Shown here piece by piece: positions 3,962 through 51,143 of a DNA stretch of 64,000 bases. The notes under the pieces are model-generated. The model did not search any database, was not told the origin of the DNA, and was given only the letters and a program-made list of their open reading frames with translations. How positions within the stretch are numbered: position 1 is the stretch's first letter; each line of letters starts with the position of its first letter. Source of the stretch: an uncultured Candidatus Saccharibacteria bacterium (GTDB lineage Bacteria; Patescibacteriota; Minisyncoccia; Phycocordibacterales; JACOZG01). Location: assembly GCA_964448295.1 (NCBI GenBank), contig CAYUVV010000003.1, positions 9,543 to 73,542 on the forward strand, written 5' to 3'. A program made the translations under genes and the position numbers.

Positions 3962-4540
3962 CTAAAATCCGGACGGGCAAAGCTCATAACTGATTTTCTT
4001 AAATTCTTTTTTAGCGCGGTGCAGACGCATTTTTGCCGCGGCGACGGAAATCCCCTCCGCCATGGCGATTTCCGCGCATGTCTCGCCTTGGTAAAAACGT
4101 CGCCGCAAAACGATCGCCAACTGACGGGGCAACCGGTAAAGAATGCGGGCCACGAGATCACGCCAGCCCTCCCTCTCTTCGCTTAAAGCGCGGGTATCGC
4201 TCAAAACGTTGGCAACGGCGCCCAAGGGGATCGCCATCCGCCGGCGCTCCGCCCGGGCAGTTGAGATCACAGTGTGTTTGAGGATGCGGTAAGCCCAAGC
4301 CCGAAAAGAACCCTCCCCCGCCGGCGCGAAACGCGCTGCGTGCAAATAAATTTTAATGAAAGTTTCGGCCACGGCGTCATCGGCACCGTCTCGTCCCAGA
4401 TAACGCCTTGCGTAACGGAGAAAAGCCGCCTCGTACCGGTCGAGGAGGACTTTAAATTGCGAGGGTGTCTCGATCGCCGAGACTATTATCTCCTCATCAC
4501 TCATCGCACCGTCAGTCGGCGTTTCTCCAAACTTGATCAT
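3962..4540 (-). CDS. RNA polymerase sigma factor, sigma-70/ECF-like (regions 2 and 4)
   Basis: Region 2-like FIKIYLHAARF and a region 4 HTH (QGETCAEIAMAEGISVAAAKMRLHRAKKEF). Converges on recA. Confidence 0.7.
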   Translation of the reverse strand: MIKFGETPTDGAMSDEEIIVSAIETPSQFKVLLDRYEAAFLRYARRYLGRDGADDAVAETFIKIYLHAARFAPAGEGSFRAWAYRILKHTVISTARAERRRMAIPLGAVANVLSDTRALSEEREGWRDLVARILYRLPRQLAIVLRRRFYQGETCAEIAMAEGISVAAAKMRLHRAKKEFKKISYELCPSGF

Positions 4541-4646
4541 TAAAACTAATAATACTTCGACCTTTCACCTATTACAACGCTCGAAAGCGGGAAAAGGTTA
4601 CAGACGATAATGGACAAAACGTCTGATATTAGCTAGCATAGCGACC

Positions 4647-5219
4647 ATGCTCGATTATAACGAAATTAAACCCAAAAAATACATTGTCCTCGACGGCGAC
4701 CCGTACGAGGTCCTCTCGGCGCACGTGTTCCGCAAGCAACAGCGCAAGCCCGTCAATGCCACTAAATTGCGACATCTGCTCACGGGCTCGGTACGCGAAC
4801 ACTCCTTTGCGGTAAGTGATAAGGTGGAAGAAGCGACGATCGAATCGCGGGCCGTAACCTACCTCTACTCCAATCGCGGCGAGAGCTGGTTCTGCGAAGC
4901 GGGCGACAAGTCGAAACGATTTTCCCTAAAGTCGGAATTGGTTAAAAACAAAATCGGTTACATTAAGCAAAACAGCGAAATTGATTTGCTAACTTTCAAC
5001 GACCAGTTGGTTGACGTCAAGATCCCGATCAAGGTGGAACTTAAGGTTACAGAAGCGGCACCGGCCGTCCGCGGCAACACCGTCCAAGGAGGCATGAAGA
5101 CCGTTACTCTCGAAACAGGCTTAACACTTAATGTGCCAATGTTTGTAAATGAAGGCGACGTCGTGCGTCTAAATACGGAGACGGGAGAATATGTTGAACG
5201 GGTTACTGCTACTGGGTAG
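4647..5219 (+). CDS. efp: elongation factor P
   Basis: EF-P KOW/OB architecture. Start [22 protein letters not shown]. Typical 190 aa length. Confidence 0.9.
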
Positions 5220-7122: not shown

Positions 7123-8567
7123 TTCCTCAAAAATAAAGGTTTTTCGGGCATCTGGCCTTTGGCAACGAGGGCTTGGATAGTTTGAGCCGTGGTAGGCATA
7201 AAGGGTTCGAGTTGGACGCCGATCCACCAGAGACGAGCGAGCAACTCTTTGATCGCCCGCTCCCCGACCGAACGATCGGTTTTGATTTTTTTGAACGGCT
7301 CCTCGTATTGGATGAGTTGGTCAGCAAAACTAATTGCCCGCCAAATTACATCCATTGCTTTTTGGACATCAAAAAAATTAAGAGCAATGGTTTGCGTTCG
7401 ATGCTGTTGGGCCAGTTCATCAGTGGCCGCCAAATTTTTGGCCTCGGCCTCGTCAAATTTAATCTGGTTATCCACCGCCATTTTCATCACCCGGCTGACG
7501 AAATTGCCGAGTCCGTTGGCGAGATTGGCGTTATACCACTCCTTAATTTTTTCCGGCGTAACGTCGGTGTCTTCAAATGGATGAACGTGGCGCAAGAGAA
7601 CATAACGTATCGCCTCAGTTCCATACTCTCTCACTAAAGCAAACGGATCAATAATGTTGCCAAGCGATTTGCTCATCTTCTGGCCGCCACTGGTGACAAA
7701 GCCGTGAATCACAATTTGACGCGGCGGCGGCAAGCCGATAGAGAGGAGCATCGCCGGCCACATTGCCGCTTGCTGACGCAGGTTGTCTTTACCTGCCAAC
7801 TGCGTTACCGGCCACCATGCTTCAAAATTTTTCTCGTTCTTTGGCCAACCAAGGGCGGAAATGTAATTAACCAACGCGTCAAACCACACGTACATCGTCT
7901 GCGTCGGGTCGTCGGGCACCGGCACACCCCAAGACATTCGCGCCGTTAGGCGCGAAATGCTGAAATCTTGCAAACCGCGCGCCGCAAAACTTTTAATCTC
8001 GCCCAAACGGGCGGCCGGAATCACAAAATCTGGTTGCTGATCATAGAGCGAGAACAATCGCTCTTGGTATTTGGAAAAACGAAAAAAATAATTTTCTTCG
8101 TCGATGGTTTCCAGCTCGAGATTGGGATGAATGGGACAACGATCATCTTCTAGCTCCGACTCGGTTTTTTCGAGCTCGCAACCAACACAATACTTAACCT
8201 GATAAGTTTTTTTATAAATATCGCCGGCGGCCGCGGCGCGCCGCCAAAATTCTTGAGCGGCCACTTGATGAGCTGGATCAGTGGTGCGGATAAAATTGGT
8301 TTCCGGATGCACACCCAAAGCCGGCAAAAGATCGCGAAAAGGTTTGGACCACTGGTCGACAAAAGTTTGTGGCGCCAAACCCTCGGCCTCGGCTCGACGC
8401 AGGATTTTCAGTCCGTGCTCGTCGGTGCCAGTATTCAAAAAAACTTCGTCCCCAACCAAACGAGCGGCTCGAGCCAAACTGTCAGCCAACACAAGCTCGT
8501 AAGCAAAGCCGATATGCGGATCGGCGTTGAGGTAGGGTAAGGTGGTGGTAAAGTAACGTTTAGCCAA
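7119..8567 (-). CDS. metG: methionyl-tRNA synthetase (core only, no C-terminal tRNA-binding domain)
   Basis: HIGH region PYLNADPHIGFAYE and KMSKSLGNIIDP. The ORF-track start at 8684 would overlap the upstream permease. A TTG at 8567 directly precedes the conserved KRYFTTTLPY N-terminus. Confidence 0.85.
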   Translation of the reverse strand: MAKRYFTTTLPYLNADPHIGFAYELVLADSLARAARLVGDEVFLNTGTDEHGLKILRRAEAEGLAPQTFVDQWSKPFRDLLPALGVHPETNFIRTTDPAHQVAAQEFWRRAAAAGDIYKKTYQVKYCVGCELEKTESELEDDRCPIHPNLELETIDEENYFFRFSKYQERLFSLYDQQPDFVIPAARLGEIKSFAARGLQDFSISRLTARMSWGVPVPDDPTQTMYVWFDALVNYISALGWPKNEKNFEAWWPVTQLAGKDNLRQQAAMWPAMLLSIGLPPPRQIVIHGFVTSGGQKMSKSLGNIIDPFALVREYGTEAIRYVLLRHVHPFEDTDVTPEKIKEWYNANLANGLGNFVSRVMKMAVDNQIKFDEAEAKNLAATDELAQQHRTQTIALNFFDVQKAMDVIWRAISFADQLIQYEEPFKKIKTDRSVGERAIKELLARLWWIGVQLEPFMPTTAQTIQALVAKGQMPEKPLFLRK

Positions 8568-42864: not shown

Positions 42865-44022
42865 TCATGCCAATCCCTTGGCTCCCGAACGCGCCGGCAT
42901 GCCGGTGAGCGGGAACGCCGCGTAAAACGTTGACCCCTGACCCTCAAGTGACTCAAACCAGACCCGCCCGCCTACCGCCTCCATAATAGACTTAACGATG
43001 TAGAGCCCAAGACCGGTGCCGTCGGCCTCTTGATCGCGGATGTTTTCAGCACGAAATAGTTTGGTGAAAATTTTGTGCTGATCCGAGGCGGGTATACCAA
43101 AACCACTGTCAGCCACCCGCCAAACTATTTCTTCGCCCACGCGCGACAATTCCACCGCGATCGTGCCGGCTGGCGGCGTATATTTAACCGCGTTCGACAA
43201 ATAATTTTGAAACACAATCCGTGTTAGCTTGGGATCAACACTTAAAATCGGTAAACCGGTGGCGTATAACTTAGACAAATCAATACGCTTCTCGGCCAAG
43301 ATCGGCGCCAGTTCGGCCACCACGCTGTCAGCCAGCTCACGGAGATCAGTCGGTTTCGGCTCGATGGCGAAAGTGCCGAGATCAATCCGCGAAACGTTCA
43401 ACAGTGAATTGACGAGCTCAATCATGCGCCGATTAGAATTGTATAAGTTTTCTAAATATTCTTTTTGTTTGCGATTCAACTTGCCAATCTCTTGCTCGAG
43501 CATCGTCTCGGCGTACCAATTAATGGCAGAGAGAGGGGTTTTTAACTGATGCGAGGCGAGAGAGACAAACTCCGTTTTGGCGCGATCCACCTCCTTATCT
43601 CGCGCCACATCGCGAAAAATGACGATCGCCCCATCCACCTCTCCTGCCACCAATAGCGGCGCTACCATCATCGCCACCGGAAAAGAGACGCCGGCGCTAT
43701 TTTTGAGTTGCAAATCGTCGCGCAAACTGAAAGAAATAATGTTTTTCTCGGCCATCGCTCGAGACACCGGTGGAGCCAACGCCTCGCGAACGGTCGAACT
43801 ATTGCCGCGCTCCAAAACGAACACCTCGCGAATATCTTTCCCCACAGCCGCTTGTGGCGCCAAACGAAGCATGATGCCTGCGGCCTGATTCATCAAAATA
43901 ATTTTTTCTGAACGATCGACAGCAATTAACCCCTCGGCCATCGAGGAAAGAATCGCGTTCAATTGATCTTGGCGCAGAGGCGACAAGGGCGGCATGGCAG
44001 CAGCATCATCCATCGCTACCAA
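42865..44022 (-). CDS. PAS-domain sensor histidine kinase
   Basis: PAS (LNAILSSMAEGLIAVD). HisKA H-box SHQLKTPLSAI. HATPase G-box GTGLGLYIV. Confidence 0.85.
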   Translation of the reverse strand: MVAMDDAAAMPPLSPLRQDQLNAILSSMAEGLIAVDRSEKIILMNQAAGIMLRLAPQAAVGKDIREVFVLERGNSSTVREALAPPVSRAMAEKNIISFSLRDDLQLKNSAGVSFPVAMMVAPLLVAGEVDGAIVIFRDVARDKEVDRAKTEFVSLASHQLKTPLSAINWYAETMLEQEIGKLNRKQKEYLENLYNSNRRMIELVNSLLNVSRIDLGTFAIEPKPTDLRELADSVVAELAPILAEKRIDLSKLYATGLPILSVDPKLTRIVFQNYLSNAVKYTPPAGTIAVELSRVGEEIVWRVADSGFGIPASDQHKIFTKLFRAENIRDQEADGTGLGLYIVKSIMEAVGGRVWFESLEGQGSTFYAAFPLTGMPARSGAKGLA

Positions 44023-44062
44023 TTATACAACAGAAAACCCTGCGCGGGGGTTGAGAAAGGGC

Positions 44063-45550
44063 TTACCAAGAAGCCCCGAGCGCCGCCCGGAGACGTTCCA
44101 GCGCTTGTTGCCAAGCCGTCGGCGACGGCTCACCAATGATCACTCCCTCATGATTGCCGTGATAAATTGTCTCAGATGCGGAACCAGAAAAATTCCAAGT
44201 TGTTGACGGCAAGATACGCACCGGCTCCGCGACGGTGTCGCCCTTAAAGTTAAACAAGAAAACCGCTTGGGTGGGCTGATTGATTCGCACATTATCAAGC
44301 GTTACCGCCACTCGAGAGCGTGTGTCCCAAGCTTGGGGTTCGTAACCACCAGCCCGAAAACCGATGTAAGTATTGTTAATGATCGCATTCTGAAACAAAA
44401 CCCGACCAGCCGCGGAACCATAATCAGGATGAATCAAATCATAAACGGCCGCGAGACCAAAGGTGCCACCATCAACCACAATGTCTCGCGCAACAATATC
44501 TACCATCGGGCTGGCCGCGCGTAAGACCGACAGCACGGCATACACACACGCCCCCTTATTATTTTCGCATCGGACATTTTCAATCAATACCGTCGCCCAA
44601 TCGAGCGGGCTACCCGGCTCCACATCAATTGCCGATTGCGGCGATTTGCCAGCGGTATTGCGAAACACACTGTCGCTAATTTCCACCCCGCGGCCGGAGA
44701 TCACTGAAACTCCCTGCCGACCGCAGCGGTCGGTAACAATATTGCGAATCTCGATATTGGTCGGTGGCGGTCGGTTGCCGACAAAGCCGGGCAGAAGGGT
44801 GATGCCATCACCTTCAGTTTTTTCAAACGTCGCGCCATCAATCGTGATATTTTCGCCGCCCGCAATCTGAACCAGCGCCCGAAACTCACTCCACTCGGCT
44901 GGCGGCAGAGATCGTTGCTCACCGATAAAGCGCCCATTCTTAATCGTCACATTTCGACACGCGTCATCGCAACCCAAAAGAAAATAAAGGTCAGAGCGAA
45001 CGAGATGCGGGGTGCCGATATGATTGCTTGCGGCCGCACGGATCGTGATACCGCTTAGATCCAGAGTGATGTTTGCCGGCAACCAGAGTTCTCCCGGCCG
45101 AACAGTATAGGTGCCGGCCTCGGGGCGGCAGACGGCACTAGGATTGGCGGCGCAACCAGCCAGCAAATTTTTTAATTTAGTCGTGTCATCAACCGGCGGT
45201 GATGGCGAAGCCGGTGGCGCGGGTGGAGTAGAAGCAAGCGGCGGCTCCGGATCGTCTGGCTCCGGCGGTAATGGCCTCACTGGTTTAGGCGTAACTTTGG
45301 GCGCAAGGGTTGGGCGAACGGGAGTAACGACCGGCGTCAACGGCAACTGGTTATTGGCGCGCAACAAAGCGATCAAATCAAGTAAGCGGCGCAAAAGAAC
45401 AATCAAGCGCCCCAGTTCTTGGCTATTCAAACGCTGAAGTGATGAATTAGAATCGAGTAACGGCGGAACGGCCAGAGCCGGCCGGGCGCCCATCACCCCA
45501 ACAAAAAAGACTAGAGCGAGAAAAAACGCCGCGATTTTTGTTCTAGACAT
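44063..45550 (-). CDS. secreted right-handed parallel beta-helix repeat protein
   Basis: Signal peptide. Pro-rich linker. Repeated N-[IV]T-I-x-N/G beta-helix rungs (NVTIKNGRF, NITIDGATF, NIEIRNIV). Confidence 0.6.
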   Translation of the reverse strand: MSRTKIAAFFLALVFFVGVMGARPALAVPPLLDSNSSLQRLNSQELGRLIVLLRRLLDLIALLRANNQLPLTPVVTPVRPTLAPKVTPKPVRPLPPEPDDPEPPLASTPPAPPASPSPPVDDTTKLKNLLAGCAANPSAVCRPEAGTYTVRPGELWLPANITLDLSGITIRAAASNHIGTPHLVRSDLYFLLGCDDACRNVTIKNGRFIGEQRSLPPAEWSEFRALVQIAGGENITIDGATFEKTEGDGITLLPGFVGNRPPPTNIEIRNIVTDRCGRQGVSVISGRGVEISDSVFRNTAGKSPQSAIDVEPGSPLDWATVLIENVRCENNKGACVYAVLSVLRAASPMVDIVARDIVVDGGTFGLAAVYDLIHPDYGSAAGRVLFQNAIINNTYIGFRAGGYEPQAWDTRSRVAVTLDNVRINQPTQAVFLFNFKGDTVAEPVRILPSTTWNFSGSASETIYHGNHEGVIIGEPSPTAWQQALERLRAALGASW

Positions 45551-45594
45551 TTCCCTAGTTTACCATAGTCGAACTTTGCGGGTACAATCAGAGA

Positions 45595-45999
45595 ATGAAT
45601 AAAGTACAACATTTCGAAATTCCCGCTGATGACCTAGCCCGCGCGCGCCAGTTTTATGAAACAGTATTTGGGTGGCACACAGCCGAGTGGCCAATGCCGG
45701 GCGGCGGCGTTTACGTTGGCTTGCACACCGGCCCCACGGACGAAAAAAATATGGTGCAAGAATCAGGCTTTATCAATGGCGGAATGTTTAAACGCGGTAA
45801 CGACTTTGCGGCGACCGGGGTCGTGATCACGCCCGTCGTTGACGACATTAAGAACACGATCGCGAAAGTTAAACAAAGCGGCGGCACGGTGCTTGCCGAA
45901 CCCAAAACTATTCCCGAGATGGGCATCTACGCTTATATCAAAGACACTGAGGGTAACGTCATCGGCCTGTGGCAATCTCTTAAAAAGCAGGAAAATTAA
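45595..45999 (+). CDS. VOC/glyoxalase-family protein
   Basis: FEIPADDLARARQFYETVFGW...GNVIGLW glyoxalase-fold pattern. Confidence 0.75.
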   Translation: MNKVQHFEIPADDLARARQFYETVFGWHTAEWPMPGGGVYVGLHTGPTDEKNMVQESGFINGGMFKRGNDFAATGVVITPVVDDIKNTIAKVKQSGGTVLAEPKTIPEMGIYAYIKDTEGNVIGLWQSLKKQEN

Positions 46000-46171
46000 A
46001 TTTGAGTTCTATTCTGGTGCTGGCATATTAACCTTTGCGCAAACCCATTTCACACGCGCGGAGCGCGTGGTGAATCGGGACTGAATCGTACGCTCTCCAC
46101 CCCGCCCGCCCTGTGCGCGCACAAATCCCAGCCGTTTTGAGGAGATATTATAAAACGGCGGGGATTGCTCC

Positions 46172-46678
46172 CTACATCAACTTTTTCATCCAAAAGAAAA
46201 ACCTTTTCGCTAAACTAACGATTATCAAACTAGAATACTTTTTGTAAATCTTACCAGTACTATCTTTTACATAGACATAGAAAATATCACTCACTTCTAC
46301 TGGAATAAACTTACCATTTTCAGAATCGTAGAAAGTAAATTCTTCCTGTCCCTGTGGTTTTAGCTGTTCACCTATTACAACACGGCGATGTTCTTCTTCT
46401 TTTGTTTTTCCGTCCCATGTCTTTATGCCAAAGGCAATAATATTGATACTCCGCCGAGTGCTTGTGTTTGTTGCGTTTATCCAAAACCCACTTCGACCGG
46501 CCCCTCTTTTATCAAAAATATATGTTAATTTGACTCTCTTATTTTCAAAGTAAATTGTTACAAGCAACGTCAAGAACAAGAGGAGCGTTGTAATCCATTC
46601 GGCCGGGTTGGCTTTGAATTGAGAAACAGCGAAAGATAGCATCGAGACTAAACTATTGATACTACGGCTGAACACCAT
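46172..46678 (-). CDS. hypothetical single-pass membrane protein (island gene 3)
   Basis: TM helix WITTLLLFLTLLVTIYF followed by a 120-aa beta-rich domain. 17-nt overlap with the protease gene. Confidence 0.5.
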   Translation of the reverse strand: MVFSRSINSLVSMLSFAVSQFKANPAEWITTLLLFLTLLVTIYFENKRVKLTYIFDKRGAGRSGFWINATNTSTRRSINIIAFGIKTWDGKTKEEEHRRVVIGEQLKPQGQEEFTFYDSENGKFIPVEVSDIFYVYVKDSTGKIYKKYSSLIIVSLAKRFFFWMKKLM

Positions 46679-47852
46679 ATTGGCGCTGTAGGCGTAATAG
46701 TTCTTCTCTTGCTGTTACTCTATATTCGTCAAAAAGAGCGTCTGCTTCATCAATGACTTGCGCAGAAGACCCACCATCTAATGCATACATTGCCAGTTCA
46801 CTCACCTCGCTGATATAAGCTGTCAAGATTCTCCTCAAGTTTTGAAGTTCTGGTTCAGCGATTAACTTATTTTTTACTATTATAATTTCATAGTAATATT
46901 TAGCGCAACTCTTTTTATAGTTAGCCATTTCCTCATCAATATTATCGGGAATCATTTCCGGAGTACCATATTTAACTAAATTATTTCCTTTACCAAGAAT
47001 TGTGCAGTTAATATCTGCCTCAACAACTTTTTCCTCAAGTACATTTTCAAACTCAACTATCTGTGCTTTGATTCTTGAATAATCTTTCTGTGGCGCAGGT
47101 TGTGATGGTTTTGGTTGTGACGCCGTTGCTTTCGGTTTTGGTGCAAGAATTTCTCGACCATTTTTAAGATCGGGAATCAATCCTTTTACGGCATTTATCG
47201 GAATTGCCAATTTTATCGTTTCTCCGATTGTGACTCCCTCGATAGACTCACCAAAACCCGCCGAATTTATACCTACAACTTCGCCGGAATGATTGACGAG
47301 AGGTCCGCCACTATTCCCCGGATGAATTTCAGCAGAAGTTTCGAGAAAAGTTACGTCTCCGTCACTAATGCGCCTGGAAATTGTTCCCTCCTTAAAACTC
47401 ACATCACCCTCCAATCCGAACGGAAAGCCGAGTGTAAAAACATTATTACCCTGCACTATCGCGTCAGAATCTCCGAATTTTACGAAAGGAAAATTTTCCC
47501 CGCTAATTTTCAAAATTGCAACATCGATAATTTCGTCTCGTCCTTTTACTTCGGCAGAATAAAGTTGTCCGTCAGACAATTTTACTTTCGCGGTGGAAAC
47601 GTCCGCGACAACATGAGCGTTAGTTAAAATATAGCCTTCCGCGTTAATTATCATTCCACTACCAACGCCTTCGGTTGTTTCGATATAAACTGTCGCGGGT
47701 TTTACCTCCGTAACAATTTCAGTGTTTGATAAAACTTTTTGTTCATTCCCAATTTTAGGTAGGTCAAAGTTTTTGTAAGCAACAACACCTCCGGAGATCA
47801 AGATAAGACCGCCCAAAATAATAAGCCCTAGTTTTGTGGTTAATATATTCAT
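46662..47852 (-). CDS. membrane-anchored trypsin-fold (S1/HtrA-like) serine protease with unknown C-terminal helical domain instead of PDZ
   Basis: N-terminal TM helix. Catalytic His (LTNAHVV), Asp (DVAILKI), Ser (GNSGGPLV). Pro/Gln linker, then a 170-aa domain with no recognised family. Confidence 0.75.
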   Translation of the reverse strand: MNILTTKLGLIILGGLILISGGVVAYKNFDLPKIGNEQKVLSNTEIVTEVKPATVYIETTEGVGSGMIINAEGYILTNAHVVADVSTAKVKLSDGQLYSAEVKGRDEIIDVAILKISGENFPFVKFGDSDAIVQGNNVFTLGFPFGLEGDVSFKEGTISRRISDGDVTFLETSAEIHPGNSGGPLVNHSGEVVGINSAGFGESIEGVTIGETIKLAIPINAVKGLIPDLKNGREILAPKPKATASQPKPSQPAPQKDYSRIKAQIVEFENVLEEKVVEADINCTILGKGNNLVKYGTPEMIPDNIDEEMANYKKSCAKYYYEIIIVKNKLIAEPELQNLRRILTAYISEVSELAMYALDGGSSAQVIDEADALFDEYRVTAREELLRLQRQYGVQP

Positions 47853-48067
47853 TTCGTGAAGTAGTCTAATGATTTATTGTAGATTTTTGCTAACTCATCT
47901 AATTCTACCGCATCTATCCGCCGCTCGCCTCGCTCTATCTTGGAAATATACGCCTGCGGTTTCTTTAATTGCTTCCCCGCCTCAATTTGCGTCAAATCTG
48001 CCTCTAGACGAGCTTGGCGGAGACGCTGGATGAGTTTTTGATATTTTGCTCGGTATTTACTCGCCAT
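47849..48067 (-). CDS. XRE-family helix-turn-helix transcriptional regulator
   Basis: LRQARLEADLTQIEAGKQLKKPQAYISKIERGER is the classic XRE HTH. 4-nt overlap with the protease gene. Confidence 0.8.
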   Translation of the reverse strand: MASKYRAKYQKLIQRLRQARLEADLTQIEAGKQLKKPQAYISKIERGERRIDAVELDELAKIYNKSLDYFTK

Positions 48068-48180
48068 AGATATACTAACATGATATAAACGATTGTGGAA
48101 TATACCAAGATGGTTTATTATGTATTAGGGGATGGTAGCGGCGAATCAAAACCAAAAATTTCCTTCGAAGTTTCTATCTG

Positions 48181-48262
48181 TGCGCGGGAGAGGATTTGAA
48201 CCTCCACGACTTGCGTCATACGCCCCTCAAGCGTACGTGTCTACCAGTTCCACCACCCGCGC
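48181..48262 (-). tRNA. tRNA-Leu (GAG)
   Basis: Acceptor stem GCGCGGG/CCCGCGC. Anticodon loop TTGAGGG. Long variable arm. Discriminator A. CCA not encoded. Confidence 0.8.
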
Positions 48263-48289
48263 GAAACGCCCAACAGTATTATAAACGAT

Positions 48290-48688
48290 TTAGAGTGACT
48301 CAGTTTCCTCAGCTGGAGATTCTTCAGACGGCAGCGTGGCGCTAATCATTTGCCGCAATTTGCGCCGAATGGTCTTTTGAGACTTTTCGCGAACGAAATA
48401 GAGCTTGGCGCGGCGCACTCGCCCACGACGCACAATCTCTATTCGATCAATGGCGGGTGAAAACAGCGGAAAAATTCTTTCGATGCCAACCCCGCTTGAA
48501 ATTCGTCGAACGGTAAAGGTGGCGCCTGTTTCCGTTCCGCGTCGACGGGCAATCACCAAGCCCTCAAACGCTTGGAGCCGCGTTTTACCTTTCTCTTCAA
48601 TCTTTTGCCAGACGCGCACGGTGTCACCGGCGCGGAAATCCCAAGCGCGGCGCGCGGCTACCTCAATCGGGCTGAAGCTGATCATCAT
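48290..48688 (-). CDS. rplS: 50S ribosomal protein L19
   Basis: [47 protein letters not shown]...[11 protein letters not shown]. Start trimmed to the ATG at 48688. Confidence 0.85.
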
Positions 48689-48698
48689 AATGGGAAAA

Positions 48699-49337
48699 CT
48701 AACATTTCTCTCGCAGAAGAGCAAGAGCGTGGGCAAAGTCTTCTGGTAAGGGGGCCGCCAACCGTGTCGTCTCTCCCCGGCGATTTGGAAAAACCAGTCG
48801 GGCAGCGTGTAAAGCCAGACGACGCATCCCGGGCGCGACGCCTGGCGCGCCGTAAAGTTCGTCTCCGGCAATGGGGTAACCAAACGCCTTGAGATGAACA
48901 CGGATTTGGTGCGTGCGACCAGTTTCCGGCTTAACTTCCAGCAGCGTCAAGCCAGAAAAACGTTCTAACACCCGAAAATGCGTCCGGGCCGAGCGCAAAC
49001 GACCAAAAGCTTTAGCGCTCGCCACTCGCCGGCGCGGATCTTTGGCGCTCCGACCGATCGGCAAATCAATCAGAGCCTCGTCGCGGCGTACCACGCCGCA
49101 CACTAACGCAAGATAAGTTTTTTCTATCCGCCTGGCGCGAAAAAGTTCACGCAGGTATTCTCGAGCCGCAGGATGTTTGGCCGCCAAGATAAGACCGCTT
49201 GTGCCCCGATCCAGACGATGAACCAGGGTGGCTTGTGGCAGACGCGACTGCAATTCCAACACAGAAATACCAGCCGGCTTATCGAGAGCCAACAAGTCGT
49301 TGTCCTCATAAATCACCAATGGTGGCGAAACTTGCAT
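48699..49337 (-). CDS. RluA-family pseudouridine synthase
   Basis: Catalytic-Asp motif [12 protein letters not shown]. No S4 domain. Confidence 0.85.
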
Positions 49338-49487
49338 TAACAGTTAGTTTTGCTATACTTATCTTGGGTCGGCTATTATTGGCGTAATATAGCGCAAAAC
49401 TATCATGGAGGACATGAACAAAGAAAAAAAGGAAGGCGAAGAAGAAGGAGAAACCGCTTAGTTCTCACTAGTTTTTAGAACGCCGAA

Positions 49488-49527
49488 CCAGCCCCGTTCG
49501 CCTAACCGCGAATGGGGTTGGTTTTTG
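49488..49527 (+). terminator. plus-strand hairpin plus T-run terminator after an 18-codon micro-ORF
   Basis: CCAGCCCCGTTCGC-CTAACC-GCGAATGGGGTTGG TTTTT, with G.U-tolerant pairing. Confidence 0.45.
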
Positions 49528-49536
49528 TGTCTAGAC

Positions 49537-49568
49537 AAAAAAACCGCCCAAGGTAAACCTCGGGCGGC
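49537..49568 (-). terminator. terminator downstream of the 49592..50284 gene
   Basis: Minus strand CCGCCCGAGG-TTTACC-TTGGGCGG followed by TTTTTTTG. Confidence 0.6.
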
Positions 49569-49591
49569 TATTTAACATTTTTGCGCACACG

Positions 49592-50284
49592 CTAACCGCC
49601 ATCCTTGATCAAGCACTCCTTGGCTAATTCAGCCGCTCGACGAGAATAATGGCCGGCTTCTCCTAGTCGGTTTACCAAGCAACACGCTTTGGAATACTCG
49701 TGGTAAACCAACGCCAGCCGGTTCGGAGGATGTTCTTCGGTTGAGATTAAGCTTACTATATTCCTTGCCTGGCTGAATGTTTCTAGGACAGTGCGGTACC
49801 CAACAACCAGCGCTTCTTGAGCCCACACACGACCACACAAGAGAAGGGCGTGGTTAATATTGTCCTCACCAATATTGTCTTTGATCAAACATAACCGGAT
49901 ACATTTCTCCATTTCTGACCACCGACCACCCAGTCGCAAAACCCGCTGATACACTACGCGTTGCTGGGTTGTCATCTGCGACCCAACGCACTCATAAGCG
50001 CGATCGAACACCGACAAACTCCAACTCCAACAATAAAAGGAGAGGGCGAAGTGCCACCAGGGTCGCCGTTCATCACCCATTTCTACCCACTCTACTACGC
50101 TGACGTACAGACTTGATAGGTCCGACCAGGCGTCGGCCTCGTCTGACGAACAATCTAGACGACGGCAAGATCTAGCCCGCGACAAGCATTCCCTCCTCGT
50201 CCTACAAAACCGGCGAAAAATTTCCGAATCAGACCAAATCCGTGCGAGTAAGCCGAGCTCAAACCGGTCAACATCAGAAAGCAT
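49592..50284 (-). CDS. hypothetical protein, paralog A of a tandem pair
   Basis: Shares FxRxRRECxxxxRxxRRL, a Trp-rich segment and a Cys-containing C-terminal helical region with the neighbouring gene. Confidence 0.5.
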   Translation of the reverse strand: MLSDVDRFELGLLARIWSDSEIFRRFCRTRRECLSRARSCRRLDCSSDEADAWSDLSSLYVSVVEWVEMGDERRPWWHFALSFYCWSWSLSVFDRAYECVGSQMTTQQRVVYQRVLRLGGRWSEMEKCIRLCLIKDNIGEDNINHALLLCGRVWAQEALVVGYRTVLETFSQARNIVSLISTEEHPPNRLALVYHEYSKACCLVNRLGEAGHYSRRAAELAKECLIKDGG

Positions 50285-50426
50285 ATTCGGCTCCTTATGA
50301 GAGAGTAATGTGAGTGTCTCCTATCCAACCATCTTATAACAAAAGACTTATTATCGCGCAAACAAAAAAAAGACCGCCGTGCCCACACAGGTTGCACGGC
50401 GGCCAAAATCGCAATCGCCTTCCAAC

Positions 50427-51143
50427 TCAAAACGCAACAGGCCCAGCTTTAAGTGTTTGGTCCTTGGCGCCAGTTTGTGCAACTAACTCTCTCGCCGTGG
50501 AGAGACAAATCTCGGCCTGTTGTGGAAAACCGAGTTTTCGTAAAACATCAGCGCACCCACGGTAAATCCTAATGACTGGATTCAGTTCTTCATTGGTCTG
50601 CGCATTTCGTTTCGCTTGATTGGCGCTAGTCAAGGCCTGTTCGATTGCCACCTCCGCACCGTCAAATGCGCCACGTCGGAAAAGAACGTCAGCCCGTCCG
50701 ACTTGAAACGAACCACGAATATGCGCCTCCCCGAGGTGTTTCCCCAAGGCTACATTAATGCACTCCTCGGCCTCGATCCACTTTCCACATTTACGACAAA
50801 TACCTTGATGGACATTGAGCTGATTGACCGTTGCCCCCACGAACCCCCCCGAGAGCTTAATTCCTCGACTAGAAATTGGATACATGCGCCAGTAACAGTA
50901 GGTGCCAAGCAATAGCCAGTGAAAAAAATACACCGATTTAAGCTGGGCGCGAGCCGTTTCTACGATCGTGTAGTAGGCGCTCGACAGCGCTGAATACCCG
51001 GCCGACTCCAACAACCTATCGCCTAATCGGCGAGCTGCGCGAACTTGCGCACCACACTCTCGCCTCTCCCGCAAAAATAGGTCGATCTTGTCCCGCCACG
51101 TCGTCGTGTTCCAACTTTGACAAGTGGAATTTTTTGTCGACAT
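50427..51143 (-). CDS. hypothetical protein, paralog B of a tandem pair
   Basis: FLRERRECGAQVRAARRLG and FFHWLLLGTYCYWRMY compare with paralog A FCRTRRECLSRARSCRRLD and WHFALSFYCWSWS. Confidence 0.5.
   Translation of the reverse strand: MSTKNSTCQSWNTTTWRDKIDLFLRERRECGAQVRAARRLGDRLLESAGYSALSSAYYTIVETARAQLKSVYFFHWLLLGTYCYWRMYPISSRGIKLSGGFVGATVNQLNVHQGICRKCGKWIEAEECINVALGKHLGEAHIRGSFQVGRADVLFRRGAFDGAEVAIEQALTSANQAKRNAQTNEELNPVIRIYRGCADVLRKLGFPQQAEICLSTARELVAQTGAKDQTLKAGPVAF

Follow-up and report, generated by a model that had tools for sequence, protein, structure and literature searches.

A probable horizontally spreading XRE-protease cassette with an exchangeable third gene, recurrently found behind tRNA genes in Patescibacteria

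The DNA analysed here (the window) is a 64,000-nt stretch from an uncultured Candidatus Saccharibacteria bacterium (assembly GCA_964448295.1, contig CAYUVV010000003.1, positions 9,543 to 73,542). Positions 46033-48165 of the window contain three tightly packed minus-strand genes, encoding a small helix-turn-helix (HTH) protein of the XRE type, a membrane-tethered serine protease and a 168-aa membrane protein. We consider this segment, with a probability of about 0.6, to be a small accessory cassette, here in a partly eroded state, of a kind that spreads horizontally among Patescibacteria (Candidate Phyla Radiation, CPR). The XRE and protease genes would form the core of this cassette, and the third gene would be exchangeable cargo. 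A first-pass annotation, made from the sequence alone, had taken the three genes for one dedicated, defence-like module. It missed a family of apparently mobile, inverted-repeat-bounded cassettes that recurs behind tRNA genes.

The order and tight spacing of the XRE-protease pair were kept in at least nine loci (L010, L013, L017, L021, L024, L025, L026, L032 and L048; related loci are cited by such handles). An XRE gene of the window type (51–69% identity) stood directly upstream of the protease gene in L010, L017, L021, L025, L026, L032 and L048, and a second XRE type took the same place in L013, L022 and L024. The protease, in most cases with a small XRE gene before it, recurs in many Patescibacteria metagenome-assembled genomes (MAGs). 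The first-pass annotation had asked whether the trio is conserved and linked to tRNA genes; the pair and the tRNA linkage (6/18 loci, see below) were borne out, but the third gene was not. Its position is occupied by at least eight unrelated gene families. The 168-aa family is found there in the window and L010, a 176–185-aa family in L017 and L048, and a 191–192-aa family in L021 and L047, whereas other cassettes carry proteins of 150 aa (L013), 182 aa (L023) or 114 aa (L032), or a 168-aa protein with several transmembrane segments (L024). L026 carries two cargo genes (1522-2741), for a soluble 177-aa protein without a family match and a 226-aa protein. The latter, similar to Abi_2/AbiD (PHROG 8e-5, PADLOC 0.0045, Pfam 0.063), is the only alternative third-gene product with a functional hint. 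Several of the alternative products are soluble. Together with the occurrence of the 168-aa family without the protease, and with the different compartments predicted for the two proteins, this diversity speaks against the idea of three genes in one dedicated module.

Comparison of the window with L048 and L047 at the DNA level showed homology through the protease gene, its loss over the third gene and its return exactly at the third-gene stop codon. At this stop codon begins a 3' element of about 85 nt (46090..46173, minus strand), consisting of a 17-bp hairpin (arms 46166-46152 and 46138-46124), a 12-nt palindrome (TGTGCGCGCACA) and a G-rich tail. The element is 86–90% identical after three different third-gene families (L048, L047, L021, L008), and its consensus fold has 17+5 pairs with one compensatory change. 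It marks the right edge of a cargo slot, and it may also act as a terminator. The swap between the protease 3' end and this element is ORF-precise. Recombination between the conserved flanks would suffice for cargo exchange. We also considered the hairpin as an integron attC site and rejected this, as there is no integrase, the bounding repeats are inverted, covariation is essentially lacking and no GTTRRRY core was visible by eye. Proteases that end in the C-terminal helical bundle described below are combined with four different third genes, and members of the 168-aa family accompany proteases of two types. There is thus no co-variation of the toxin/immunity kind.

Upstream DNA of 400 nt or more was available for 18 loci, and in six of these the start of the cassette or of the protease gene was no more than 320 nt 3' of a co-oriented tRNA gene. 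Each of the six has a different tRNA: Leu-GAG in the window, Ala-TGC in L047, Ser-TGA in L048, Gly-TCC in L032, Thr-TGT in L036 (45 nt) and Lys-CTT in L037 (20 nt). Chance adjacency was estimated at 1–2% per locus, from about 45 tRNAs per genome of about 1 Mb. Beyond these six, the islet L008, which holds the 168-aa family without the protease, also lies behind a tRNA (Ser). At the tRNA end the HTH gene can be truncated at its 5' side, at codon 24 in L047 (5 nt after tRNA-Ala) and at codon 38 in L008 (0 nt after tRNA-Ser). The G+C content (GC) of the cassette was 0.36-0.43 at every locus and that of the flanks 0.33-0.54, with a marked contrast in the window, L017 and L026. Neighbouring genes were non-syntenic and differed in every lineage: a glyoxalase and type IV pilus genes in the window, glycosyltransferases and MurB in L017, restriction-modification (RM), RhuM and S49 protease genes in L013, TyrRS and ClpP in L032, and DsbA, VKOR and Ddl in L047. 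Copies with 75–96% identity are scattered among different lineages.

Several cassettes are flanked by long inverted repeats. These measure 206 nt at 97% identity, of which 191 nt are perfect, in L013/L022; 165 nt at 100% in L032; 141 nt at 100% in L026, where the contig start cuts them; 100 nt at 91% in L048, where the contig end does; and about 125 nt at 78% in L017. A search across 48 loci found a GC-rich palindromic core common to the repeats of L013, L025, L026, L032 and L037. The repeat type of L017, L048 and the window carries a CACGCGC-N3-GCGCGTG hairpin, and the repeat cores include GCTCGGGCGGCGCGGAATTCC and the CACGCGCGGAGCGCGTGGTG type. Three lineages have repeats of 141–191 nt at 100% identity, yet their cassettes are only 60–75% identical to each other; perfect repeats at such divergence require either active homogenisation or recent creation. 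The L013-type cassette meets the same flank of GIY-YIG, S49 protease, RhuM and methylase genes in two ways, with the junction at the third-gene end in L013, L015 and L022 and at the HTH end in L014 and L016. The switch point lies within the 191-nt perfect repeat, and both forms occur in several samples and from different assemblers. The inversion is probably real.

Some minor features were noted at these loci. A stand-alone GIY-YIG gene (83–90 aa) lies just outside the right repeat at two unrelated loci (L013 2906-3157 and L032 ~7710-7970), and another such gene, at L003 10998-11255, is close to a serine-recombinase element in which the stand-alone bundle gene is found. The tRNA-Gly of L032 comes after a LAGLIDADG-like open reading frame (ORF) with an HTH (4403-5074). 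Ten of the 11 protease relatives with at least 90% identity were on contigs shorter than 6 kb, many of them about the size of the cassette (1.4–2.7 kb). Assembly breaks at the repeats around the cassette would produce this pattern, but contigs of such length are frequent in any case.

In the window copy all three ORFs are on the minus strand, at 48067..47849 (XRE-HTH, 72 aa), 47852..46662 (protease, 396 aa) and 46678..46172 (168-aa membrane protein). The XRE and protease ORFs overlap by 4 nt (ATGA), and the protease and third ORFs by 17 nt if the first ATG is used. Because the same three proteins were called on independent contigs, we regard the ORFs as real genes rather than chance ORFs. The GC content is 0.35-0.43 across 46000-48200 and 0.50-0.58 on either side (in summary, 39% vs 52% in the flanks), an offset from the host of 13 points. 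A tRNA-Leu gene (anticodon GAG) lies at 48262..48180 on the minus strand (ARAGORN; 50.8 bits with the Rfam tRNA model). The XRE ORF starts 112 nt 3' of it, and the cassette edge is about 15 nt past the tRNA 3' end. The ORF survey found no recombinase ORF within 43000-51000, the window showed no direct repeat of att type derived from the 3' end of tRNA-Leu, and Rfam scans of the window and of the relatives' loci returned tRNAs only. These data agree with the first-pass description of three overlapping ORFs in low-GC DNA 3' of tRNA-Leu with no integrase. Its further claim of translational coupling is uncertain for the third gene, since the two close homologues of its product have their first residue where the 168-aa protein has Met13 (46642). 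A start there would leave a 20-nt gap in place of the overlap, and Met13 may be the true start.

Remnants of the inverted repeats persist at both ends of the window copy. On the left, a 32-nt piece of the inner arm (AAATTTTTGGTTTTGATTCGCCGCTAC, 48134..48165, minus strand) remains; the outer part is gone and the tRNA stands in its place. Alignment of the window with L017 and L048 by blastn ends at 48165, and the right arm of L048 (5693-5720) matches 48138-48165 at 96%. On the right, a 45-nt piece of the outer arm (46033..46077, minus strand), including the hairpin CACGCGC-TCC-GCGCGTG, is the last cassette DNA before the glyoxalase gene (45595-45999) that adjoins this edge. It is 89% identical to L017 2648-2692 and 83% identical to the opposite arm (L017 355-400), and it is unique within the window. 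Separately, two independent Logan contigs from the same population, L001 and L046, end at window positions 48161 and 46109. The former is 4 nt inside the left cassette edge at tRNA-Leu and the latter is within the 85-nt element. Such assembly-graph branch points at both cassette borders hint at presence/absence variants or at further copies of the border sequences.

The 72-aa protein matched Pfam HTH_3 (PF01381, E = 3.3e-14, aa 16-70) and HTH_31 (1e-8). In PADLOC it gave domain-level matches to RmrA, CapH and Control_protein, and its matches to antitoxin-type models were weak (E >= 0.003). A consensus scan located a promoter-like site at 48080..48119 (minus strand), with a -35 box TTGGTA (48108-48103), a 17-nt spacer and a -10 box TATCAT (48085-48080). 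A 9-bp inverted repeat, AATAAACCA-N3-TGGTATATT (48119-48099, minus strand), overlaps this site, and the block that the two form is near-identical in the window, L017, L021 and L048, whose coding DNA is only 74–84% identical. The palindrome at 48099-48119 is the putative operator of the XRE protein, a dimer of which would bind over its own -35 box and hold operon expression low. Such an arrangement resembles the C-protein/XRE modules of RM systems and of type II toxin-antitoxin (TA) operons (review PMC3874152), which likewise have a small HTH_3 gene first, overlapping the next gene, and a palindrome at its own promoter; the PADLOC Control_protein and CapH models match the cassette HTH. Unlike those modules, the cassette is predicted to regulate an exported protease rather than a nuclease or a cytoplasmic toxin. 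Neither downstream protein matched a toxin family in Pfam, PADLOC or NCBIfam.

The second gene encodes a predicted membrane-tethered, PDZ-less HtrA-type (S1C) serine protease. It consists of a signal-anchor identified by hydropathy (aa 8-26, 47831..47775), the protease domain (aa 58-235, 47681..47148), a Pro/Gln/Lys linker (aa 236-257) and a C-terminal four-helix bundle (aa 258-396, 47081..46665), all on the minus strand. Pfam Trypsin_2 matched aa 64-195 (E = 1.3e-34). The NCBIfam DegP/HtrA/DegS models matched aa 58-235 only, the degP_htrA_DO model with E = 8e-45 and 153 bits against a cut-off of 416. The catalytic triad recognised in the first-pass annotation (H80, D110, S181) is invariant across 16 relatives, and the reported absence of PDZ domains was confirmed by a Pfam scan that gave none at E <= 1. 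We therefore did not file the protein as a DegP/DegS orthologue. It shares with HtrA, DegP and DegS (MEROPS S1C; E. coli DegS, Gram-positive HtrA) the trypsin fold, the His-Asp-Ser triad and an N-terminal membrane anchor predicted to place catalysis outside. It differs from them in scoring far below the family cut-offs, in having a linker and Cys-stapled bundle in place of PDZ, and in being carried, behind a small XRE gene, by a mobile cassette. The N-terminus reads MNILTTK followed by 19 hydrophobic residues, a signal-anchor of a sort that Gram-positive HtrA proteins have. This anchor and a conserved Cys pair fit export, although the charges flanking the anchor are balanced. About 4,700 relatives of the protease were recovered, and the more distant ones are common across CPR genomes.

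Pfam, NCBIfam and PADLOC scans assigned no known family to aa 236-396. An AlphaFold2 model of aa 237-396, built from a 28-sequence alignment, gave a four-helix bundle with a predicted local distance difference test score (pLDDT) of 92 and helices at model positions 23-59, 69-91, 98-122 and 128-156. Foldseek searches of PDB and BFVD with this model gave nothing significant, the best shapes being sensor domains of the Tar/PcaY type (TM-score 0.5-0.6). The domain thus remains helical and unassigned, as the first-pass annotation had it. Two cysteines are nearly invariant. C283 (model position 47) is 12 residues short of the helix 1 end and C316 (model position 80) is 11 residues into helix 2, which puts them at matching height in an antiparallel pair. 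This placement suggests a C283-C316 disulfide and hence an extracytoplasmic bundle. The architecture is not unique: six or more further protein clusters, including one from a MAG of Staskawiczbacteria, share the transmembrane segment, protease domain, linker and same bundle. In other close relatives of the protease domain the C-terminus is unrelated, or a DUF5667 is present at the N-terminus. What stays constant is thus the protease domain, to which modular appendages are joined. The bundle occupies the position of PDZ and probably takes over its part in substrate recognition, regulation or gating.

The bundle also travels without the protease. In 13 clusters it stands alone behind a transmembrane anchor and a low-complexity linker, in one locus (L005) followed by a gene of the 176–185-aa third-gene family. 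Neighbours of the stand-alone bundle genes include large serine recombinases, PG_binding_1, Bro-N, PemK, GmrSD and a DDE transposase. A recurring block with such genes was seen at L003 3930-7381 and L004 3820-7663; it holds a PG_binding_1 protein of about 400 aa and small ORFs, adjoins AAA_25 and large serine recombinase genes, and probably represents an integrative element from CPR bacteria. In L047 (7081-7791) a PG_binding_1 gene follows the cassette.

The 168-aa protein has one transmembrane helix by hydropathy (aa 28-44, 46597..46547, minus strand). As the first-pass annotation had found, it is a single-pass protein without assignment: it matched no Pfam, NCBIfam, PADLOC or PHROG family, and a profile search of PDB was empty. 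Close homologues form only two clusters among 5.8e9 proteins. An exhaustive profile search of 1.8 billion representatives recovered 27 clusters of the family, and a metagenome scan with the profile found nothing beyond one contig already known. Members share a short N-terminal tail with a PAEW-like motif, the transmembrane helix, a beta-rich domain and a C-terminal amphipathic helix, with an invariant Lys inside an RKK-type cluster. A relationship to PilZ was suggested by an RxxxR-like 'RKKxR' 24 residues before 'NxS', after which come a beta domain and then the C-terminal helix. We rejected it, as no member of the family matches PilZ or any other Pfam family and the PDB profile search was empty. 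The mean number of Lys and Arg residues in 23 members is 1.1 before the transmembrane helix and 5.0 after it. By the positive-inside rule, the globular domain is predicted to be cytoplasmic, opposite the protease domain. A structure prediction from a 3-sequence alignment reached a pLDDT of only 60 and was for this reason left out of the fold search. The family accompanies the protease in the window and, beside a protease of another architecture, in L010-L012, and occurs without any protease in L008 (behind two small secreted proteins) and L049 (with its own promoter). From this distribution the 168-aa protein appears to be exchangeable cargo and not a constant partner.

Several observations weigh against a mobile accessory cassette. 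No transposase, invertase or integrase was present in or beside any cassette examined, and no target-site duplication was found outside the arms in L013, L032, L017 or L026. L013, L017 and L025 are not beside a tRNA. The window copy retains remnants of the inverted repeats but no intact pair, and its own mobility would for this reason be historical at best. A search via the neighbouring glyoxalase protein did not recover an empty site; it returned the same arrangement and a 901-nt contig ending within the cassette 3' element. An assembler artefact could account for the two orientations in which the L013-type cassette appears, since its perfect repeat of 191 nt is longer than k-mers and reads; we do not call the inversion proven. 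Repression by the XRE protein, the topology of export, the disulfide and the activity of the protease are all predicted.

The 3' ends of tRNA genes are classical integrase targets, and the cassette might instead be a remnant of an integrase-borne, tRNA-linked island or prophage, that is, leftover cargo at an att junction, with the repeats being incidental (paired terminators or decayed repeats). Junctions 0–16 nt after the tRNA with truncated HTH genes, stand-alone bundle relatives in elements with large serine recombinases, and the lack of target-site duplications at the repeat ends all speak for such a remnant. We nevertheless consider it unlikely. Neither the window nor any cassette locus has an integrase, the far boundary lacks a direct repeat of the tRNA 3' end, one cassette family is found at six different tRNAs, and the repeats have stayed perfect in three lineages while their cassettes diverged. 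A phage origin as such was rejected: IMG/VR contained no relatives of the protease or of the 168-aa protein, and GenBank phages gave only generic DegP/DegS/DegQ matches below 45% identity. The least probable of the alternatives is an ordinary housekeeping HtrA operon for envelope quality control that is foreign only in looks. The protease domain is a good DegP/HtrA match and distant relatives are widespread in CPR genomes, but the GC offset, the flanking repeats, the apparent orientation polymorphism and the close copies spread over different lineages do not fit it. The first-pass annotation had named a housekeeping operon in conserved context as the outcome that would tell against its reading, and the contexts of the relatives proved variable and non-syntenic.

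The remaining alternatives keep the three genes together. A dedicated three-gene system akin to defence, abortive-infection or toxin-immunity modules, in which XRE represses, the protease is effector or sensor and the 168-aa protein is an obligate partner (substrate, inhibitor or membrane effector), is in our judgement quite improbable. The same three families do occur together once more (L010/L011/L012), the genes are tightly packed in island-like DNA, and RM, RhuM, GmrSD and PemK genes are among the neighbours of the relatives. Trypsin-type domains also occur in known defence proteins, and the protease gave domain-level PADLOC matches to RT-Protease_XI (2e-22), LmuA (5e-14) and Avs1b. Against this stand a third gene that differs in most cassettes, the 168-aa family without the protease, the opposed compartments, and the absence of co-variation between bundle or protease architecture and the third gene. 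PADLOC v2 found single domains only, with no match for the third gene and no reverse transcriptase, LmuB or NTPase to complete a system, in line with the first-pass view that no named defence system is present. Signalling of the DegS/RseA kind is still harder to sustain and we regard it as very unlikely. DegS too is a membrane-anchored HtrA-family protease, and here the bundle would sense, the protease would clip the external N-terminal tail of the 168-aa protein, and the cytoplasmic domain would alter XRE-controlled transcription. The bundle is shaped like Tar/PcaY-type sensors and the 168-aa protein is predicted N-out/C-in with its conserved PAEW motif at the outer membrane face. The fold matches are not significant, however, the third gene is not conserved and several of its alternatives are soluble, and no site-2 protease or sigma/anti-sigma signature was found.

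If the segment is a copy of an accessory cassette, as we prefer, the protease would insert N-in/C-out, so that its catalytic domain and disulfide-stapled bundle face outside. The 168-aa protein would insert N-out/C-in with a cytoplasmic beta domain, and for this reason would act independently of the protease active site. A protease that is mobile and under repressor control, faces outward and can exchange its recognition modules points to accessory envelope proteolysis in conflict or stress, as do the bundle relatives on other mobile elements and the defence-flavoured neighbours and cargo. Conflict, whether with phage, with other mobile elements, between cells or at host or competitor surfaces, is a tentative suggestion to which we give somewhat less than an even chance. 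The case for it is weakened by its reliance on context and on weak cargo matches, those of the Abi_2/AbiD-like protein of L026. Stress tolerance would rank below conflict, and little speaks for housekeeping. Confidence in any specific biological role is low. The stress-tolerance option has a precedent in Enterobacteriaceae's locus of heat resistance (LHR), an island acquired by lateral transfer that contains a DegS-like HtrA protease (PMC4563881). Like the cassette, the LHR places an accessory HtrA-family protease on horizontal DNA flanked by mobile elements; unlike it, the LHR spans about 14–16 kb with many stress genes, and it has no sequence or architectural relation to the cassette.

The cassette mixes features of mobile insertion cassettes (MICs), invertible segments and tRNA-linked islets, and has the full set of none of them; nor does it match any defence system, TA module or integron described so far. 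We know of no cognate insertion sequence (IS) for its repeats. MICs are passenger genes between IS-type inverted repeats without a transposase (PMC4337579). The cassette resembles them in its passenger genes between inverted repeats, the lack of a transposase inside, its many sites and its foreign composition. It differs in that its repeats are 100–206 nt long (MIC <100 bp) and full of GC hairpins, in that no target-site duplication was seen, and in its strong bias towards sites 3' of tRNA genes. With invertons and shufflons it shares long inverted repeats, perfectly homogenised arms and one lineage assembled in both orientations on the same flank, but here a whole 2-kb operon with its own promoter would flip (as seen at assembly level) and there is no nearby invertase gene. 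Tyrosine-recombinase islands likewise lie directly 3' of a tRNA and have foreign GC; the cassette departs from them in lacking an integrase and att direct repeats, in its size of only 2 kb and in its use of six different tRNAs.

Three routes of movement may be considered. Transposition in trans in the manner of MICs is disfavoured by the missing duplications and the very long repeats, and descent from integrase-borne islands by the six tRNAs and the homogenised repeats. Recombination anchored at tRNA genes after DNA uptake is a further candidate. A bolder proposal, which we think has a minor chance of being right, is that the family is an undescribed, recombinase-less mobile unit of CPR bacteria: an operon of about 2–2.6 kb with long, hairpin-rich, actively homogenised repeats, which flips in place, has a cargo slot by a conserved hairpin and is delivered 3' of any tRNA, perhaps by a trans-acting enzyme or by the same tRNA-anchored recombination. 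In that event the XRE-protease pair would be the element's own backbone function, for example in surface exclusion or establishment.

The CPR bacteria, or Patescibacteria, are uncultured episymbionts with tiny genomes and few mobile elements that are understood. A recurrent, recombinase-free, tRNA-linked and cargo-swapping cassette would offer a concrete handle on accessory-gene exchange among them. The HtrA scaffold, it appears, can trade PDZ for other outward modules, such as a Cys-stapled bundle that also travels alone on mobile elements. These modular appendages point to recognition at the cell surface and could matter for interactions with phage or host. The wider cassette family is in these respects of more interest than the eroded copy in the window.

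Two further features lie near the cassette in the window. A 495-aa secreted protein (44063-45550, minus strand), which has a long linker rich in Pro and matches Beta_helix faintly, is probably a surface protein; it is flanked by the glyoxalase gene and by a block of PAS histidine kinase, response regulator and type IV pilus genes. On the other side, the neighbouring ORFs at 49592-50284 and 50427-51143 (minus strand) encode proteins of 230 and 238 aa that are alike in length and rich in Cys, Trp and Arg. The pair sits between an RluA-like gene and a tRNA-Val/tRNA-Arg pair and is paralogue-like in appearance.

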